Shown: in pieces, positions 1 to 64,000 of the stretch | Position numbering within the stretch: position 1 is the first letter of the stretch | How the letters are laid out: every line of letters begins with the position of its first letter | Assembly (NCBI RefSeq): GCF_964194155.1 | Contig: NC_135881.1 | Location: 70,556,001-70,620,000, forward strand | Source: Cetorhinus maximus | Taxonomy: Eukaryota | Direction of reading: 5' to 3' | Length of the DNA: 64,000 nt | Program-made: the position numbers and the translations under genes | The notes under the pieces: model-generated | Databases searched by the model: none | What the model was told of the DNA's origin: nothing | Seen by the model: the letters and a program-made list of their open reading frames with translations, nothing else

Positions 1-615
1 ATTTTGGGTAGGAGGTAGAAGCGGGCCGTCCGAGGTTGGGCGACTATCAAGTTGGAAGCTGTGGGAGGAAGATCTCCAGAGGAGATGAGGTCAGTGACAG
101 TCCTGGAAACAATGGCTTGATGTTCTGTGGTGGGGTCATGGTCCAGGGAGAGGTAGGAGGAAACGTCTGCGAGTTGACGCTCAGCCTCCGCGAGGTAGAG
201 GTCAATGCGCCAGACAACAACAGTACCACCCTTGTCAGCGGGTTTGATGACAATGTTGGGGTTGGACCTGAGAGAACGGAGTGCAGTGAGTTCAGAGAGA
301 GACAGATTAGAATGGGTGAGAGGAGCAGAGAAATTGAGACGGCTAATGTCACGCCGACAGTTCTCAATGAAAAGATCAAGAGAAGGTAAGAATCCAGAGG
401 GAGGGGTCCAAGTGGAGGGAGAATATTGGAGGTGGGTAAAAGGATCCATTGAACGGGGAGAGGACTCCTGCCCAAAGAAGTGAGCACGGAGACGAAGACG
501 GCGGAAGAAGAGTTCAGCATCGTGCCGAGCCCGAAATTCATTGAGATGAGGGCGTAAGGGTATGAAACTAAGTCCTTTGCTGAGTACTGAACGTTCAGCA
601 TCGGAGAGGGGAAGG
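1..615 (-). mobile_element. Second Penelope-like copy (N-terminal/RT-proximal part), inverted, running off the window start
   Basis: 1-615 is the reverse complement of 740-1354 (paired coordinates sum to 1355; mirrored ORFs 36..389/966..1319 and 205..483/872..1150). I saw about 4 substitutions. Confidence 0.93.
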
Positions 616-2912
616 AACGCAAGCTCCAACAACTCATCGACTCCAACACCCATCGGGGACCCTCCACCCCTGCTTGTCCCTCCGTCCTCACCCCATCTTC
701 CAATCCCAGCCCCAGCCGCGTATTCACTATACCCCCTGACCTTCCCCTCTCCGATGCTGAACGTTCAGTACTCAGCAAAGGACGTAGTTTCATACCCTTA
801 CGCCCTCATCTCAATGAATTTCGGGCTCGGCATGATGCTGAACTCTTCTTCTGCCGTCTTCGTCTCCGTGCTCACTTCTTTGGGCAGGAGTCCTCTCCCC
901 GTTCAACGGATCCTTTTACCCACCTCCAATATTCTCCCTCCACTTGGACCCCTCCCTCTGGATTCTTACCTTCTCTTGATCTTTTCATTGAGAACTGTCG
1001 GCGTGACATTAGCCGTCTCAATTTCTCTGCTCCTCTCACCCATTCTAATCTGTCTCTCTCTGAACTCACTGCACTCCGTTCTCTCAGGTCCAACCCCAAC
1101 ATTGTCATCAAACCCGCTGACAAGGGTGGTACTGTTGTTGTCTGGCGCATTGACCTCTACCTCGCGGAGGCTGAGCGTCAACTCGCAGACGTTTCCTCCT
1201 ACCTCTCCCTGGACCATGACCCCACCACAGAACATCAAGCCATTGTTTCCAGGACTGTCACTGACCTCATCTCCTCTGGAGATCTTCCTCCCACAGCTTC
1301 CAACTTGATAGTCGCCCAACCTCGGACGGCCCGCTTCTACCTCCTACCCAAAATCCACAAACAGAACTGTCCTGGCAGACCGATCGTGTCAGCCTGTTCC
1401 TGCCCCACGGAACTCATTTCTCGTTATCTTGACTCCCTTCTCTCTCCCCTTGTCCAGTCCCTTCCCACCTACATCCGTGATTCCTCTGACACCTTACGTC
1501 ACATCAACAATTTCCAGTTCCCTGGCCCCAACCGCTTCCTCTTCACCATGGATGTCCAATCCCTCTACACCTCCATCCCCCACCAGGATGGTCTGAGGGC
1601 CCTTAGCTTCTTCCTTGAACAGAGGCCCCAACAATCCCCATCCACCACTACTCTCCTCCTTCTGGCTGAACTTGTTCTCACACTGAACAATTTCTCCTTT
1701 AACTCCTCTCACTTCCTCCAAATAAAAGGTGTGGCTATGGGTACCCGCATGGGCCCCAGCTATGCCTGTCTCTTTATGGGGTATGTGGAACATTCCTTGT
1801 TCCAGTCCTACGCCGGCCCCCTCCCACAACTCTTTCTCCGGTACATCGATGATTACTTCGGTGCTGCTTCATGCTCTCGTCGGGACCTGGAAAAATTTAT
1901 TAATTTTGCTTCCAATCTCCACCCCTCCATCATCTTCACATGGTCCATCTCTGACACTTCTCTTCCCTTCCTTGACCTCTCTGTCTCAATTTCTGATGAT
2001 AGACTGTCCACCAATATCCATTACAAGCCTACCGACTCCCACAGCTACCTCGACTACAGCTCCTCACACCCCGCTTCCTGTAAAGACTCCATCCCATTCT
2101 CTCAGTTCCTTCGCCTCCGTCGCATCTGTTCTGATGACGCTACCTTCAAAAACAGCTCCTCGGACATGTCCTCCTTCTTCCTTAACCGAGGTTTTCCATC
2201 CACGGTCGTTGACAGGGCCCTCAACCGTGTCCGGCCCATATCCCGCGCATCCTCCCTCACGCCTTCTCCTCCTTCCCAGAAACATGATAGGGTCCCCCTT
2301 GTCCTCACTTATCACCCCACCAGCCTCCGCATTCAAAGGATCATCCTCCGCCATTTCCCCCAACTCCAGCATGATGCCACCACCAAACACATCTTCCCTT
2401 CACCCCCCTTGACGGCATTCCGTAGGGATCGTTCCCTCCGGGACACCCTGGTCCACTCCTCCATCACCCCCTACTCCTCAACCCCCACTTATGGCACCTC
2501 CCCATGCCCACGTAGAAGATGCAACACCTGCCCCTTCACTTCCTCTCTCCTCACCGTCCAAGGGCCCAAACACTCCTTTCAAGTGAAGCAGCATTTCACT
2601 TGCATTTCCCCTAACTTAGTCTACTGCATTCGTTGCTCCCAATGCGGTCTCCTCTACATTGGAGAGACCAAACGCAAACTGGGCGACCGTTTTGCGGAAC
2701 ACCTGCGGTCTGTCCGCAAGAAAGACCCAAACCTCCCTGTCGCTTGCCATTTTAACACTCCACCCTGTTCTCTTGCCCACATATCTGTCCTTGGCTTGCT
2801 GCATTGTTCCAGTGAAGCCCAACGCAAACTGGAGGAACAGCACCTCATCTTCCGACTAGGCACTTTACAGCCTTCTGGGCTGAATATTGAATTCAACAAC
2901 TTTAGATCTTAA
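615..2912 (+). CDS. Penelope-like polyprotein (RT + Cys linker + GIY-YIG endonuclease); frame is open upstream of the called ORF at 1305 but has no native start
   Basis: In frame from ~615: ERKLQQL...LSKG.SFIP...IKPADKGG...FYLLPKIHK...GRPIVS...DVQSLYTSI...GVAMGTRMGP...RYIDD...FLDL; CPRRRCNTCP linker; LVYCIRCSQCGLLYIGETKR...RFAEH; TAA at 2910-2912. Confidence 0.92.
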   Translation, partial: ERKLQQLIDSNTHRGPSTPACPSVLTPSSNPSPSRVFTIPPDLPLSDAERSVLSKGRSFIPLRPHLNEFRARHDAELFFCRLRLRAHFFGQESSPRSTDPFTHLQYSPSTWTPPSGFLPSLDLFIENCRRDISRLNFSAPLTHSNLSLSELTALRSLRSNPNIVIKPADKGGTVVVWRIDLYLAEAERQLADVSSYLSLDHDPTTEHQAIVSRTVTDLISSGDLPPTASNLIVAQPRTARFYLLPKIHKQNCPGRPIVSACSCPTELISRYLDSLLSPLVQSLPTYIRDSSDTLRHINNFQFPGPNRFLFTMDVQSLYTSIPHQDGLRALSFFLEQRPQQSPSTTTLLLLAELVLTLNNFSFNSSHFLQIKGVAMGTRMGPSYACLFMGYVEHSLFQSYAGPLPQLFLRYIDDYFGAASCSRRDLEKFINFASNLHPSIIFTWSISDTSLPFLDLSVSISDDRLSTNIHYKPTDSHSYLDYSSSHPASCKDSIPFSQFLRLRRICSDDATFKNSSSDMSSFFLNRGFPSTVVDRALNRVRPISRASSLTPSPPSQKHDRVPLVLTYHPTSLRIQRIILRHFPQLQHDATTKHIFPSPPLTAFRRDRSLRDTLVHSSITPYSSTPTYGTSPCPRRRCNTCPFTSSLLTVQGPKHSFQVKQHFTCISPNLVYCIRCSQCGLLYIGETKRKLGDRFAEHLRSVRKKDPNLPVACHFNTPPCSLAHISVLGLLHCSSEAQRKLEEQHLIFRLGTLQPSGLNIEFNNFRS

Positions 2913-3260
2913 ACTCCCCCTCCCCCCATCCCCACCCCGTTTCTTTTCCCCCCCCCACCCGCCTTTTTTTTCAATAATTTATATAGATTCTTCTTTCCCC
3001 ACCTATTTCCATTATTTTTAAATCTAAAACTAAAACCTTTAGTCTTTCCACCCCACCCCCACTAGAGCTGTACTTTGAATATCCTGTCTTGCATTCTTAA
3101 TTAGCACTTTTCTCAGACAAAGACCACCACCTTCAACACCTCTTTGACCCTTTTGTCTCTGACATCTTTTGATTATCTGCTCACACCACACCCTCAATGT
3201 GTCTCTTCCCCCCCACCCACCTTAAACCAATTTATATTTCTCCCTTGTTGAAACTATGCT

Positions 3261-3303
3261 TCAGTTCTGCTGAAGGGCCATGAGGGCTCGAAACGTTGAC
3301 TGA
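3261..3303 (+). ncRNA. Minimal type I hammerhead-like motif in Penelope 3' UTR (variant core CUGCUGA)
   Basis: tcagtt-CTGCTGA-a-gggcc(atgag)ggctc-GAAA-cgtt-gactga: stem I and stem II pair, with palindromic ACGT in place of stem III. Confidence 0.55.
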
Positions 3304-3729
3304 TTTCTTCTCCGCCGATGCTGCCAGACTTGCTGAGTTTTTCCAGGTAATTCAGAATTAAAAGGCATGAAGACCAAACTAAGTTCGTTCCTGGGCATCA
3401 TCATCATCATAGGCAATTGAGCTGCAAACAGGAGTCAGGCACTCTGGTGCAGATCATTTGTCCAGCCTAACCAGTTTTGGCTGGTGTTGAGGCCCAGAGG
3501 TAAATACAGACGAGGAGTAGGAAGCAATTGGAGGGGTAGGAAGCAAGAGCACTCCCGCTCCTTTCAACTCCACAAAAGTTTAAATTTAGTAAAGCTGCAG
3601 GACCTTTTATTGACTGGATTCAGAATGCTCTTTAATGTGCACTGGTCAGGCAGTTCCTGCTTTTCTGCTGCAGAAAATGGGCTGCCCTCCTGGACTCCTG
3701 GGTGTCATTTCTCCTTTCCATGAGAACGT

Positions 3730-22324: not shown

Positions 22325-22368
22325 GCCTCCAAAGTCAACATTCCACACCACTGGAAAGGTACAGCTAC

Positions 22369-22624
22369 TGTAGTAATTATAGTTTCATTTGGTGTGTAAT
22401 GTGCCTTTAAGAAAAATGCTTGTTAAGGAAGATCACATGATTTATAGTAACCAATAGGAGAGTAACGCGGGCTACCTCAGTAGTCAGTAGTATAGAGATA
22501 CAGTTGGAGTTGAAAGCTCCAACGCAGCTGCTGAGCACCTTGTAAATAAACTTAAAGTTCCCACCCAAGAAGCGTCTTTGGATCAATTCTATCAATAGTA
22601 CCAACTCGGCCACCACTCACAACA
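22369..22624 (+). repeat. 5' LTR
   Basis: tgtagtaatt...cacaaca, with AATAAA, followed by the PBS. Confidence 0.92.
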
Positions 22625-26054: not shown

Positions 26055-26282
26055 TGCAGTAATTATGGTTTTATTTAGTGTGTAATGTACCTTTAAGAAA
26101 AATGCATTAACCAATAGGAGAGTAGCGTGGGCTACCTCAGTAGTCAGTAGTATAGAGATAGAGTTGGAGTTGAAAGCATACATATAGTTGCTGCTGAGTA
26201 TATTGTAAATAAACTTAAAGTTTCCAAAAAGTGTCTGTGGATCAATTCTATCAATAGTACAACTCAACCATCACACACAACA
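26055..26282 (+). repeat. 3' LTR (about 28 bp shorter than the 5' LTR)
   Basis: tgcagtaatt...cacaaca directly after the PPT aaaggaagaggaa. Confidence 0.92.
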
Positions 26283-28086: not shown

Positions 28087-28342
28087 TGTTGTAGGGTGGC
28101 CGAGTTGTGCTATTAATGATAGAGTTGATCAGCAGACACTTCTTGGGTGGAAACATTAAGTTTATTTACAATATACTTAGTAGCAACTACATGTGTGCTT
28201 TCAACTCCAACTCTATCTCTACACTGACTCCTGTGGTAGCCCACACTCCTCTCCTATTGGTTACTACAGATCATGTGATCTTTCCTAACATGTATTATTC
28301 TTAAAAGTACATTGCACATTAAATAAAACCATAATTACTACA
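28087..28342 (-). mobile_element. Solo LTR of the same Gypsy family
   Basis: Reverse-complement similarity to 22369-22624; perfect 5-bp TSD gaatg at 28082-28086 and 28343-28347. Confidence 0.92.
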
Positions 28343-28940
28343 GAATGTTTATTTTATGGTGGCTTTTATTTTTGCATTGTGACCAAGCAGGCACTGTGAT
28401 GGTCAGTGACAGAGGGAAGGTAAAGTGTAGGACTTCTGATGAATAGGAAATTAGGATTGTGGTTCATGGTATCACACTCAGATGAGTTCTTCATCAATAG
28501 CTCAGGCAGGAAAGAGCTGTCTAGGTTGCCTCTTACCTTCACTTCCTCCTTTTCCTCATCCTCCTCCTCATACTCCTGTTCCTTAGCAGATCAGTTGATA
28601 GCCTAGTAGAAGCTCTTGATGGTAAGCAGCAAACAGCAGACCACAATGAATCTTGACATCTGGTTTACTGAGCGCTGCAAGGTTCCTTAGGTTCAGTTCA
28701 GGCAGCAGAAACATTGGGCAGAATTTTCCATTAATGAGAGTAAGTATTGTGGCAGGCAGTTTCTGGGGTGCCCATCCCGCTGGCCGGAATGGCGGGAACT
28801 CACACCCGATTCCGCGCTTGGAAGCGCAGATGAGTATCAACCCAAATCACCTGGCGGATTGGGAGCTGATTTGTCCGCCCGCCGTCAGCTGGCGTTGACG
28901 AAGGTCCGGGCGATATATTTAAAAGCCAGTCCAACATATA

Positions 28941-30155: not shown

Positions 30156-30184
30156 CATCAGTTCATGCAAACATATGGGAGCAA

Positions 30185-30279
30185 CTGATGAAGAGTCATA
30201 CGGACTCGAAATGTTAACTGTGTTCCTCTCCGCAGATGCTGTCAGACCTGCTGAGTTTTTCCAGCTATTTTTATTTTTG
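30185..30279 (+). mobile_element. 95-bp Penelope-tail insertion with hammerhead core
   Basis: CTGATGA-a-gagtc(atacg)gactc-GAAA, then the PLE tail; direct repeat tgggagcaa at 30176-30184 and 30280-30288. Confidence 0.82.
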
Positions 30280-31997
30280 TGGGAGCAAGTAGTTTGGTGC
30301 AGAAGTCTTGAAGTCAGCAAAAAGCCCTTCAGCATCCACCATACCACTCCCTGCAGACTCTTGCAACATGAAACACCAAATACATGTAGAATCATAGCAA
30401 CAGCCAGAAGAATTTAACCAGAACTTGACCTGTCAGTAGTCAATGATTCCTTCAAATAATGATGGGGAGAGGTCCTTCCTGCTGTTGAACTTGAGTTCGG
30501 CTGTGCAGGGTTAAGAGAGAGAGCGGCTGGTCAATTGAGCTCCAAAATGCTGCTGTTGGTGTCATACACTCTGATCAGCCTCATACCTGCTCTGCATCCT
30601 TCCAGCAGACATTGACTGCACATGCTGACGCCTGCACCATTGTGGTGTCTGACACAATTCACAAGTGTGCGTGTTTCACACACCATTTTGGCATTCTAAG
30701 GGTACCCATAGCATCCAAAAAAGGGCTCTAATAAGCCCATAAGCGTTTTTGATAATACTAATGCCCTTTTGTATCATCAAAATTCTTGATGACAGTACAA
30801 TTCCGACACGGAGTGGAAAAACAGATGGGTGTACTATGTTACACAAATTCTGGAACCAGATTCAAACCCTTAGCACATTGTTTTATAATTCAGCATGTTT
30901 ATTTTAGCAGCAATGACGTATGGGTGCAAAATAAATTAGAATTTCTACTGACATGTTATCTGTCTGCCCTCAGTTAAAGCATACTGTATGATGGGTTTAT
31001 GGCTGTTAATTATACTTTTATCCCAGATTCAAATTTGCACAAAATAAACCAAAAGTTGAGTTAAAATTTTCCCACTGGAATAGCATTTTTGAGCAAAAAT
31101 ATTGTACTGGATTTTACCATCCAGGGATGGGGATGGATCAGCAATTAAAATTTTAAACATCTCAAACCTGACCCCAAACAGCCTCCAATCCACCCACGTC
31201 TGGTTTTAATGAAGGCAGATCAAAGGGCGAGCAGCCAACCTGCTCCCAAGAGGCATGTTGGTAATTTAAATACTTTAATGGGGCTGGCAGTCTCTGCTTT
31301 AACCTGTTTTACAGGTTTCACAGTGGCCAGTCGGGTTTCCTAGACCTCAGGACACCTGACAGCTAAAGGAAGGCAAGGACAGTTTTGGGACATTTACAGC
31401 ACTGCTTGTTGACCAGGGGGAGCAGCAGTGGTGCCCCTGGGCTCCCAAGCTCCATCCCATCAGTACCCGCTTTCATACAAAGACTGGGGATTGAAAGCCC
31501 CCAAAGATTAGACACCTACCTGTCGGAGATCAGACCTACCCACCCGCAGGATTGGATGTTCCCCTCCCCATTACGCCCCACCCCTAGGTCAGGGATTGGA
31601 CACTGTTGGCAATGTTGAAGATCAGGCCTACCTGTCCCTGTGGCCTGCTCTGGAGTCCTCCCTACCTGTCAAACAGGCGGACTTTTGGACTACTGTGGAT
31701 TCCTATCTAAAGGTCTGCCCCAACATATGTAAGCAGTTTTGCATTTTCACTCTATAGAAACAGCAGTTGTTTAAGGAGTTCTTTCATAAGCAATCAGGAA
31801 TTCACGCACATTGGAGAAACATGCCTTCATACATAGGGAACACACAAACCAGCCGATGTACTCCAGAGACAGCAGGTCAGGTCATAATTCCTTGTAAGGG
31901 TAGAAACTCTGATTGGCGTACAACTCATGCTACATTCCTGTTCATCTTAAACTTGTTTTAAATAGGCAGCTGCTCTTGGTTGTAGATTTTTTTTTCT

Positions 31998-34679: not shown

Positions 34680-35205
34680 CGAGAGGTTTTGAATTCAAAT
34701 CCCGCAGTTGGACGTTGTGAAATTGACTTTATTAAATCTGTCATTTTGACCTTTCAGATAAAATGTTAATCTGAGGCCCAGTCTGACCTTGCAAATGGAT
34801 GTTAAATATCTCATGGCACTGTTCAAAGAAAAGGAGAGTTTGCCTAGTGTCCTAACCAATATTTATTCCTCAACCAAGGTTACTAAAACAGATTATTCAC
34901 GATTGAAGAAGGCTCTGAAGAAGGGTCATACAGACTCGAAACGTTAGCTGTTTCTCTCTGCACAGATACTGTCAGGCATGCTGAGTTTTTCCAGCATTTT
35001 CTGTTTTAATTTCAGATTTCCAGCATCTGCAGTATTATTCATGCTTTTATTCATTGTTGATGTTTGTGGGACCTTGCTGTGATCAAACTGACTGTTGCAT
35101 TTCCTTAGATCACGGCTACTCTTCTGAAGCACTTAACTAGCTATGAAGTTCTTTAGCACCTGTTGAGATCATGAAAGGGGTTATATAAATGCAAGTTCTT
35201 TCTTC
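34680..35205 (+). mobile_element. DeuSINE (SacSINE1/AmnSINE1-like), interrupted
   Basis: gtgtcctaaccaatatttattcctcaacc...tgtttgtgggaccttgctgtg...tatataaatgcaagttctttc matches the Deu-domain/L2-tail pattern as I recall it. Confidence 0.72.
34900..35033 (+). mobile_element. Penelope-tail insertion with complete minimal hammerhead
   Basis: ggct-CTGAAGA-a-gggtc(ataca)gactc-GAAA-cgtt-agct; direct repeat attattca at 34892-34899 and 35034-35041. Confidence 0.75.
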
Positions 35206-53747: not shown

Positions 53748-54985
53748 TGGAGCATGGTGAACTAGCAGTATGCCTGATGGCCTACAGAGCGTGAGAGAAA
53801 GTGACTGAGGCTTCTGGCTGCACAGAGGCAGGAGCAGAAACCTCAGGAAGAAGGGGCGGCTAGGGTGCCCACACACGTTGCCCAGGAGCCAGTGCGAGCT
53901 GTCGCTGGTTGGCACCTAGCGACATCCAGGGTCTATAGGCGCCACCTTTCAGTCCTGCAGATGACCGAGAACCAGTGTCGCCGAAAGCTGTGCATGTCTA
54001 GGGAACTGGTCGCTCACATCTACCAGCTACTGCAGGATTTGGCACCATGGGGACATGGAGGGCATCCACTGCCAGTGGCTGTGAAAGTGACTGTGGCGCT
54101 CAATTTCTACACCAGTTGCTCCTTTGAGGGCTCCACAGGTGACCACTCTGGGATCTGACAAGCCTCCACCCACAAATGCATCCATGAGGTCACGGATGCC
54201 ATCTTTGTGAGGGCACACAACTTTGTGCATTTCACCCGGGACCAGGACAGCCAGGATGCAAGAGCGATTGGATTCACCCAGATCTCGTGTTTCCCACATG
54301 TGCGGGGTGCGAATGACTGCATTCATGTGGCGCTCAGATCTCAGTCGCAACACACAGTGACTTCATCAACTGCAAGGGTTTCCATTTGCTGAATGTGCAG
54401 CTGGTGTGTGACCACCAGAAACACATCCTGCAGGTTTGCGCACGGTTTCCAGGGAGTGTGCACGACACCTACATCCTCAGTCGGTCACAGATCCCTGGAG
54501 TCTTCCAGGGTCCACAGAAGCTGCAGGGATGGCTCTTTGAGGGCAAGGGCTACCCGCAGAGGCTGTGGCTGATGACACCCATACGGTGGCCTCAGACTGC
54601 AGCAGAGCGATGGCATAACGAGGCTCATGATGCAACTCACAACTTGGTGGAACAAACCATCGGGATGCTGAAGGTGAGGTTCCAGTGCCTGGACCGGTTT
54701 GGTGGAGCCCTGCAATACAGTCCACAGAGGGTGCCACGTGTCGTTGTTATCTGCTGCGCCCTTTACAACCTGGTACTGCAATGGGGAGACAAACTGGCTG
54801 AGGAGGACATGGAGAAGCTGCACGTCTCCAACGATGAGGAGGATGCCAATGGGAATGAGGGTCAGGAGGTCCTCGGAGAAGACGATGACGGGGATGAGGG
54901 CCTCACACTGGCTGGATGAGACAAACGTGCTTGGGAGGCCCTCATAGCTGCCAGATTTGTGGAGGATGATGTCAACATGCAGTGA
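53748..54985 (+). pseudogene. HARBI1-like DDE transposase, disrupted
   Basis: LPVAVKVTVALNFY, GANDCIHVAL, LNVQLVCD..ARFPGSVHDTYIL, KGYP..WLMTP, VEQTIGMLKVRFQCLD, CCALYNL; stops and frameshifts. Confidence 0.9.
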
Positions 54986-61934: not shown

Positions 61935-62334
61935 CAGAGACTGGAGGAGGAGGCTCCGCAAATATCCCCATCCTCAATGATGGAGGACCCCAGCACATCA
62001 GTGCAAAAGATAAGGCTGAAGCATTTATGCCATCTTCAGCAAGAAGTGCCGAGTGGATGATCCATCTCAGCCTCCTCCGGAGGTCCCCAGCATCACAGAT
62101 GCCAGTCTTCGGCCAATTCAATTCACTCCATGTGATATCAAGAAACAGCTGAAGGCACTGGATACTGCAAAGGCTATGGGCCCTGACAATATTCCGGCAA
62201 TGGTCCTGAAGACTTGTGTTTCAGAACTAGCCGCATTCTTAGCCAAGCTGTTCCAGTAAAGCTACAACACTGGCATCTACCCTGCTACATGGAAAATTGC
62301 TGGGGTATGTCCTGTACACAAAAAGCAGGACAAA
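61935..62334 (+). mobile_element. CR1-group LINE fragment (pre-RT region)
   Basis: KAMGPDNIPAMVLKTC..ELA..LAKLFQ, WKIA.VCPVHKK. Confidence 0.8.
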
Positions 62335-64000
62335 TAAGAATAAGAGCAATAGTAATAGGGAATTCTATAGTCAGGGGAACAAATAGGCACTACTGTGGCC
62401 GTCAACGTGACTCCAGGATGGTATGTTGCCTCCCTGGTGCCAGGGTCTGGGATGTCACTGAATGGCTACAGGGCATCCTGAAGGGGGAGGGTGATCAGGC
62501 AGAGGTCATGGCACATGTTGGTACCAATGACATAGGTAGAAAGAGGGGTGAGGTCTTGCATCAAGAATTCAGGGAGTTAGGCAGTAGACAGGACCTCTCG
62601 GGTTGCAATCTCTGGATTACTCCTAGTGCCACATGCTAGCGAGCTCAGAAATAGGAGAATAGCGCAGATGAATATGTGGCTTAAGAGTTGGTGCAGGAGG
62701 GAGGATTTGAGATTCCGGGATCACTGGGACCGTTTCTGGGGAAGGTGGGACCTGTACAAGCGGGACAGTCTACATCTGAACCAGAGCGGGACTAACATCC
62801 TTGCAGGTGGGTTTGCTAGTGCTGCTGGGAGGAGTTTAAACTAATTCAGCAGGGGGAGGGGACACAGAATGTTAGCAGAATAGGGACACATCATAATACA
62901 GTAAAACAATCAAGTCAGAGGGAGTACAGCTGCATGAAGTTTCAAGGGAGTAAGGCAAGGCAAGAAGGCCTCTACTTTAAGGAGTACTACAGGTAAAATG
63001 GACGAGTTAAGGGTGAGCCAAAACAAAAACAGAATTACCTGGAAAAACTCAGCAGGTCTGGCAGCATCGGCGGAGAAGAAATCAGTTAACGTTTCGAGCC
63101 TTCATGGCCCTTCGGCAGAACTGAAGCATAGTTAGGAGAAGGGAGAAATATAAACATATAAAAACATATAAATATAAACATATAAAACATATAAAAATAT
63201 ATAAAGGGCCATGAAGGCTCGAAACGTTAACTGATTTCTTCTCCGCCGATGCTGCCAGACCTGCTGAGTTTTTCCAGGTAATTCTGTTTTTGTTTTGGAT
63301 TTCAGGCATCCGCAGTAGCTTTTAGCTTTTTGTTTTTATCTCTGAGTTAAGGGTGAGGATTGACACGCGGAATTTGATATAGTAGCAATCACAGAGACGT
63401 GGTTGAAGGAGGGACAGGATTGGCAGCTCAACATTCCAGGATATAGAATCTTTAGGTGAGACAGGGGAGGGGGTAAAAGAGGAGGAGACATTGCATTATT
63501 AGTTAAGGAGTCAGTTACTGCAGTAAGGAGAGATGATATCTTGGAGGGGGCATCGAATGAAGTTTTGTGGATAGAGCTTAGGAATAAAAAAAGGGGCAGC
63601 CACATTGTTAGGTGTTTATTATAGACCCCCAGATAGTCAGCAGGAAATTGAGGAGCAAATATGTGCACAATTTGCAGAGCTGCGTAAAAACATTAACAAT
63701 AGGGTAATTCTATTAGGTGATTTCAACTTTCCCAACATTAATTGGAATAGACATAGTGTTAAAGGCTTGGATGGAGTCAATTTCTTGAAATGTGTACAGG
63801 AGAACCTTTTAGGTCAATATGTAGAGGGCCCAACAAGGGACGGCGCAGTGCTGGACCTAATTCTGGGGAATGAAGCCGGACAGGTGGCTGAGGTGGTGGT
63901 GGGGGAGCATTTTAGTCATAGCGACCACAACATGGTACAATTTAAGCTTGTTATGGACAAAGAAATAGACAAGTTTCAAAAAAATATTTTGGATTGGGAG
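62335..64000 (+). mobile_element. CR1 LINE: ORF1 SGNH esterase and ORF2 APE start, continuing beyond the window
   Basis: IVIGNSIVRG, CLPGA, HVGTND, DSLHLN; then AITETWL, YYRPP, LGDFNFP, LDLILGN, SDHN. Confidence 0.9.
63018..63343. mobile_element. Palindromic mini-Penelope insertion with 14-bp TSD
   Basis: 95-bp inverted arms at 63018-63112 and 63204-63298; TSD gagttaagggtgag at 63004-63017 and 63344-63357; near-identical to 3231-3353. Confidence 0.92.

Follow-up and report, generated by a model that had tools for sequence, protein, structure and literature searches.

A short head-to-head Penelope-like insertion with a repeated central filler in a CR1-like LINE of Cetorhinus maximus

The window analysed here is a stretch of 64,000 nucleotides from Cetorhinus maximus (contig NC_135881.1, positions 70,556,001 to 70,620,000 of the forward strand; positions below are those of the window). 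Towards its right-hand end lies a decayed LINE, split by an insert of 326 bp that lies between exact 14-nt direct repeats. The left part of this host LINE (62337..63003, + strand) carries a decayed ORF1, in which we presume esterase-like motifs, and the start of ORF2, as seen by translation and by tblastn matches to ray proteins; a Pfam search of the ORF1 region (62340-62636) gave no match. The right part (63358..64000, + strand) encodes an APE endonuclease with stops and frameshifts, which matched PF14529 (E=3.1e-11) and PF03372 (E=1.3e-07) at 63575-63997. The LINE is 50-54% identical to five homologues, four of them named as ray proteins. With its APE endonuclease it is a putative CR1-like element, possibly of L2 type. 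A fragment of another LINE, at 61960-62336, stops at about 62335, where the host LINE begins, and the reads of relatives continue into different sequence at this same point (~62335).

The left target-site duplication (TSD), GAGTTAAGGGTGAG, occupies 63004..63017 (+ strand), in the opening codons of the APE endonuclease of the host LINE, and its second exact 14-nt copy occupies 63344..63357 (+ strand); the repeat is not extendable at either side. Between the two copies lie, from left to right, an antisense arm (63018..63154, - strand), which is 137 nt of the 3' module (pLTR) of a Penelope-like element (PLE); a junction filler (63155..63203, + strand), AT-rich, 49 nt long and with borders uncertain by 1-2 nt; the shared part of a sense arm (63204..63298, + strand), 95 nt that are identical to the left arm and start inside a hammerhead core; and a one-sided tail of 45 nt (63299..63343, + strand), present at the right end only. 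The arms (63018-63112 and 63204-63298) are complementary at 95 of 95 positions. Thus, two claims of an earlier note made from the letters of this DNA, palindromic arms identical over 95 bp and a perfect 14-bp TSD in the start of a CR1 ORF2, were borne out. Note that the arms are not nested: the left one extends 42 nt further inside, toward the 5' side of the element, and the right one carries the 45-nt tail. The centre of the junction comprises 91 nt that are not palindromic. The outer end of the left arm corresponds to the short, tail-less 3' end of the PLE family.

The earlier note had proposed, as a way to refute its reading, to look for CR1 relatives that already contain the 14-mer twice. 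The insertion point is covered by three of the five homologues, the other two beginning downstream, and the motif is single in each of the three, so that no doubled 14-mer was seen in relatives. In the ray proteins P0121 and P0122 just 7 residues separate the stretches that map to 62980-63012 and from 63373 (in P0121, residues 45-55 correspond to 62980-63012, and residue 63 onward to the sequence from 63373), and P0124 has the same single motif at the insertion point. Moreover, one contig from a sequencing run of a relative (run X15), where the motif is likewise single, skips the insert, passing from 62980 to 63345 with 28 letters between. These results confirmed that the two-armed structure, with its true target duplication, is a real PLE insertion. 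Taken by itself, it is one commonplace insertion into a repeat that is no longer active, and nothing points to a role for the host. An assembly or library artefact is hardly credible: palindromes are prone to artefacts and the locus was not seen in the runs of relatives, but an artefact would not give an exact 14-bp duplication, a host LINE that is collinear on both sides of the insert and a one-sided tail. No mismatch (0 of 109 positions) is found in the arms and duplications, which puts their divergence at 2.7% or less (95% upper bound); measured in substitutions, the insertion is therefore young.

The insert itself has no ORF and is tied to its family by a long sister copy at 591..3353 (+ strand), which has a frame with reverse transcriptase (RT), with a GIY-YIG domain at the C-terminus, and then the 3' module; the antisense arm is 93.5% identical to its positions 3231-3353 over 123 nt. 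The RT and the C-terminal GIY-YIG nuclease required of the EN+ PLE families are both present in the open frame of this sister copy (591-2912), whose first residues come from an inverted arm: RVT_1 was found at E=5.1e-07, above the cut-off, and GIY-YIG at E=0.00042, just below it. The closest named protein match is from Chiloscyllium (68%). At residue 639 the frame has a CX4CXXC motif. A CX2-5CXXC linker between RT and nuclease is a trait of Neptune elements, common to Nematis (PMC8557442; this and the other papers cited by PMC or bioRxiv number are drawn on as excerpts). The insert is the 3' end of a high-copy PLE that, by this linker, which Nematis has too, would be of Neptune type.

The abundance of the family was apparent in sequencing runs of relatives, four of which were aligned out of 24 listed (best share of words, 0.59). 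In run X24 (1.9 Gb) each arm had a depth of ~14,000-fold, as compared with roughly 140-2,700 on the flanking LINE bins; if, as we assume, the genome of this relative measures 3-6 Gb, it would hold tens of thousands of PLE copies. The locus itself did not show up in the four runs aligned: their longest listed pieces diverge by ~7-10%, and the stretch is not crossed by any of them. Scans of viral contigs gave 0 matches, and scans of metagenome contigs gave 96, all attributable to chance (the longest alignment to an arm among these 96 loci was 34 nt).

On its 5' side the sister element carries an inverted copy (1..615, - strand) of 740-1354, identical at 611 of 615 positions. This fold-back at 1-1354 shares the head-to-head layout of the insert, as the earlier note had observed. 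It is joined without filler, the sense arm is longer at the centre by ~124 nt (616-739 is native reading frame by homology), and a 4-nt overlap probably lies at the junction (612-615). Its outer end falls outside the window. The fold-back matches the insert in geometry only and cannot test the mechanism. The sister copy stops 14 nt short of the short start site of the family. At 3346-3360, the sequence at this end and just beyond it matches the terminus of the element itself in inverted orientation over 8 nt, which may reflect a small fold-back at the 3' junction or be chance.

Two older short copies of the family, neither with an inversion, lie at 30185-30279 (with duplications, 30176-30288; 9-bp duplication) and at ~34900-35033 (with duplications, 34892-35041; 8-bp duplication). 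Their 5' ends fall at, and ~15 nt before, the hammerhead core, and the copies of the window end at the equivalents of 63284, ~63292 and ~63316. The copy at 34914-35033 aligns into the 45-nt tail; the last four letters of the tail (to 63343) had no counterpart in any relative seen. Inspection by eye showed no nick motif common to the insert site and the 30185 copy.

The pLTR piece of the left arm includes a minimal type-I hammerhead-like motif (63082..63124, - strand), whose stems I and II form in the predicted fold and in which GAAA is present. Core position 6 of this motif is C, and that of the hammerhead consensus is A. Rfam gave 0 matches in the window, so none at gathering score for this motif, and the folds of the arms were not more stable than those of shuffled sequences (z=+1.32 and +1.03). 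One hammerhead of the insert's pair is truncated inside its core. Position 6 reads C in two young copies (63082-63124, - strand, and 3260-3305), and A is kept in two older ones (30185-30230 and 34914-34955); in the relative of run X24 it is U, with G>A at 63115 in 3985 of 4135 reads. Judging from these letters, the ribozyme of the abundant subfamilies may be a variant one or no longer functional. Minimal hammerheads are present in Neptune pLTRs, and PLE remnants of S. mansoni contain opposite-strand pairs of them, about 100-700 bp apart (PMC4209133). As occurs in our insert, those pairs are short opposite-strand pieces of pLTR, ascribed to truncated PLEs; the excerpts of that paper describe no junction or TSD, whereas both are seen here.

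The earlier note presented the insert as a snapshot of a Penelope integration. It is not a rare one, as head-to-head is the most frequent inverted arrangement among published PLEs (PMC3846280). In a typical Penelope unit the pLTRs have an inverted pLTR next to them, one end bears a tail of 31 bp, and the duplications measure 8-10 bp (PMC3846280); the same layout is given in PMC8557442 and PMC8969392. The insert resembles these EN+ PLE units (PMC3846280, PMC8557442) in its inverted, 5'-truncated copy at the 5' side, its head-to-head arms, its one-sided tail and its TSD, and the published units have a hammerhead motif in the pLTR, where the insert has a hammerhead-like one. It differs from them in that both arms are only ~140 nt long, with no ORF, and that a repeated filler of 49 nt, not a palindrome or an overlap, stands at the centre. 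Its tail is slightly longer (45 nt, compared to 30-40 bp in published PLEs), and its duplication differs as well (14 bp, compared to 8-10 bp in the PLEs of A. vaga and 9 and 8 in the other copies of the window). The layout is the standard one of PLEs in its smallest form; the non-nested arms and the filler from an arm end are what this copy adds.

How a PLE insertion is completed, and how inverted arms and one-sided tails originate, is unsettled, and the present copy displays every junction at once. Each arm has sequence that the other lacks, so neither is a plain copy of the other, and their formation calls for either two primings or a second template. Had a single cDNA, primed once, simply folded back on itself, perfectly identical arms would result, and the snap-back junctions documented for R2 insertions (PMC11371274) offer a precedent; such an origin needs, however, one arm to lie wholly within the other, and the non-nested arms contradict this, the 45-nt tail and the 42-nt inner piece both being supported as element-derived by comparison with the window copies. 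We give this explanation practically no weight. Both outer ends of the insert match 3' ends of the family, in the window copies and in the loose read ends of run X24, which fits priming from two ends. In that run, 2395 reads have loose letters before 63020 (agreement 0.37, that is, mixed flanks), and 8774 reads have T-rich loose letters behind 63316, like the tail, although a subfamily difference contributes to this pile as well.

The insert is best explained by priming from two ends and a stutter at the central joint, an explanation that we consider probable. The duplication, the single site in relatives, the extents and non-nesting of the arms and the repeated filler can be read directly in the sequences. 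The enzymology is borrowed from a lizard PLE of another clade: the protein PAc (Poseidon, from Anolis) cleaves and extends both target strands in vitro, begins reverse transcription at two positions on the RNA, which delimit the tail, works without homology to the DNA that is cut, and has been predicted to form a dimer (PMC11167929). The insert is like the PAc system in that both strands appear extended from two start sites bounding the tail and in the lack of homology between primer and template; no clear pairing was seen between the left primer end and the RNA beside the short start site, as was reported for PAc. It is unlike it in that the AT-rich ATT cut motif of PAc is not evident at the purine-rich target. 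The excerpts of the PAc study address neither inversion nor filler and show no finished two-ended insertion, and our own proposal rests on one event.

We infer that two-ended priming took place here in the following order. A PLE protein of Neptune type (RT plus GIY-YIG, probably as a dimer) would have made cuts 14 nt apart in the two strands of an old CR1-like copy. Two 3' ends would have resulted, each serving, with no need of homology, as primer for a reverse transcript of the PLE 3' module: the left one from the short start site, the right one from the tail start site, which lies 45 nt further down. Synthesis of the left cDNA would have ended after 137 nt. The earlier note supposed that both staggered target ends primed on the same tail sequence; priming from both ends remains the best reading, but not the shared position, as the outer starts of the arms are 45 nt apart on the 3' region of the family, the interval being the known PLE tail. 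It also described the process as resembling twin priming, a likeness that goes only part of the way. As in L1 twin priming, both target ends prime, the 5' part is inverted and the TSD is kept; L1, however, makes its two cDNAs from adjacent parts of the RNA, with a median overlap of 12 bp (PMC12016303), and here fixed family starts give an overlap of 95 nt, which sets the insert apart. A literature search for Penelope and twin priming found no PLE study by title, most subscription papers being outside its reach.

The filler contains six overlapping copies of ATATAAA (counting two A's shared with the right arm); 5000 dinucleotide shuffles averaged 1.3 copies and never attained six. This heptamer is the last seven letters of the left arm, in agreement with the claim that some 50 bp of filler had been copied from the end of the antisense piece. 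The units consist of the heptamer and A-runs of varying length, usually with a C between; as tandem units they are imperfect (74-93% matches). At its end the filler overlaps the sense arm by 2 nt (AA). The filler can be built in 7 copy steps (mean expected, 10.9; P=0.0006), and only 262 of 18280 sampled 20-mers of the window allow as few. No other array of this type occurs in the window. The longest stretch that the filler shares with the end of the left arm is 9 nt, a match that is not significant by itself (P=0.22 against shuffles), and a parse using the arm only is marginal (P=0.049). The CR1 flanks and the start of the right arm were also tried as sources and rejected (longest matches of 3-5 nt; P at least 0.88). 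The corresponding position of the sister copy (3231) has no filler, and the recurring C is not found in the sister sequence adjoining the arm end; this C might go back to the source copy, have been added without a template or derive from the tail. The end of the tail shares 9 nt with the units made of an A-run plus CA (P=0.09), and a parse with two templates gave P=0.009. The tail end may be a second template for these units; if so, synthesis would have restarted at the tail site and been aborted.

In the two-ended reading, the AT-rich 3' end of the left cDNA would have slipped backwards and made some six further copies of its last heptamer before a 2-nt AA/TT match allowed a switch to an antisense strand, either that of its own cDNA (a fold-back) or that of the partner cDNA; fill-in and ligation would then have produced the head-to-head arms and the 14-bp duplication. 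Since the filler follows the end of the left arm and overlaps the right arm by 2 nt, the 3' end of the left cDNA was probably the active one. Its own and the partner cDNA are identical, and as switch targets they are therefore indistinguishable. Consequently, the earlier claim that two cDNAs were joined by slippage or theta-type end joining is retained as regards the filler, which repeats the arm end, but a fold-back of the stuttering left cDNA is equally possible. The filler might instead have grown later, by replication slippage from a short AT-rich junction left by a two-ended insertion. Self-copying builds it in only 7 steps, and hairpin-prone centres are unstable; yet the 0 mismatches in 109 positions leave little time for such growth, and the units are imperfect, for which reasons this course of events seems very unlikely.

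Regarding the enzyme that would have made the filler, the filler consists of short runs copied from next to the break, as templated insertions do. In Drosophila, alternative end-joining (alt-EJ) junctions include repeated AT-rich templated inserts, modelled as iterative synthesis of 3-8-nt runs in which polymerase theta is involved (PMC2895639). About half of the copies of zebrafish ZfL2-2 have extra nucleotides at the 5' junction, and in earlier work of the same group many 5' extras were traced to flanking sequence (PMC4245944). Our filler resembles both in its short, repeated, AT-rich runs from near the break, and differs in joining element to element instead of element to flank. Because such alt-EJ inserts and LINE extras are known, a host enzyme is the plainer maker, and we give joining of the polymerase-theta type about an even chance. 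Slippage of the PLE RT is a clearly weaker candidate, and some other maker is unlikely.

PLE RTs are the sister group of telomerase, its closest relatives, which makes RT slippage the more interesting reading. In its specific form, telomerase-like repeat addition, the PLE RT would have realigned repeatedly on a template of 7-8 nt at or near the RNA end, the outcome being preserved where two target-primed cDNAs met. We regard this version as unlikely though worth stating: if it were true, both two-ended priming and repeat addition would be documented on a large scale by the very many short copies in shark genomes. Our search on slippage, repeat addition and telomerase in PLEs (which left most subscription papers outside) found no paper on PLE junction fillers by title, and the excerpt of bioRxiv 10.64898/2026.07.22.740005 has nothing on junctions.

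Palindromes at inverted junctions have also been explained by self-priming (Arkhipova et al. 2013, PMC3846280). An antisense transcript would prime on itself, so that the palindrome precedes integration, and nuclease resolution, to which the tail is ascribed in PMC8557442, would leave the tail at one end; this model accounts for the tail and accommodates a loop on one arm. The joints seen in relatives bear on it. Among the 15 joints listed (of 358 in the four runs), 13 lead out of the left arm into the right one, which shows that the head-to-head geometry recurs in relatives, and 9 of these 13 inversion joints meet within 9 nt of a perfect palindrome. Note that these rows overlap and are not independent, that their sides measure 20-42 nt and that library fold-back chimeras may be included. 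The frequency of near-perfect palindromic joints in this list suits self-priming; it also favours a central fold-back over free end joining. Against self-priming stand the in vitro results with PAc, which map the tail to two RT start sites on the sense RNA with both target strands extended, as well as the 91-nt non-palindromic centre and a filler derived from the end of one arm. Thus, we think self-priming improbable for this insert.

Slightly more room, if still little, is given to a pre-formed palindromic master copy, filler included, that was transcribed and inserted as a unit by a single priming at the tail end. Such a copy would be expected to give 95/95 identity between the arms. Moreover, the read alignment skipped 63154-63205 as a repeat, so the coverage of the filler in relatives is not readable and leaves room for masters of this kind, and the X15 joints from 63121/63122 to 63317/63318 (depth 259-271) may mean that inverted forms have multiplied as units. 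With random 5' truncation, however, the left end would coincide with a family 3' end only by chance, and the sister copy lacks the filler. In X15 the mean depth of 108,053 in the bin 63169-63219 is explicable by 16 arm positions, a point against the master copy that is weak given the masking. Two-ended priming remains our preferred reading and, the PLE family being very abundant in related sharks, it can be tested statistically in an assembled genome.

Several further features were observed in run X15. Its depth at 63317-63326 is ~2-3 million. In the joint from 63051 to 63278, another inversion joint, lies an AT-rich insert of 16 nt similar to the beginning of the sense arm of this joint, possibly a second stuttered filler. 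The joints from 63121/63122 to 63316-63318 (contig depth 144-271) connect the hammerhead edge to the last 22-23 or more nt of the tail, and are perhaps a head-to-head form with one very short arm that has multiplied. A pile of read starts at 63210 was considered as a biological 5' end and rejected, as it follows a subfamily mismatch at 63209 beside the masked repeat. Elsewhere in the window, an open frame at 54317-54919 has a DDE_Tnp_4 (Harbinger-type) domain (E=5.2e-26), and a repeat of ~250 bp is present in three copies that are 77-80% alike (22368-22624, 26055-26282 and 28087-28343).
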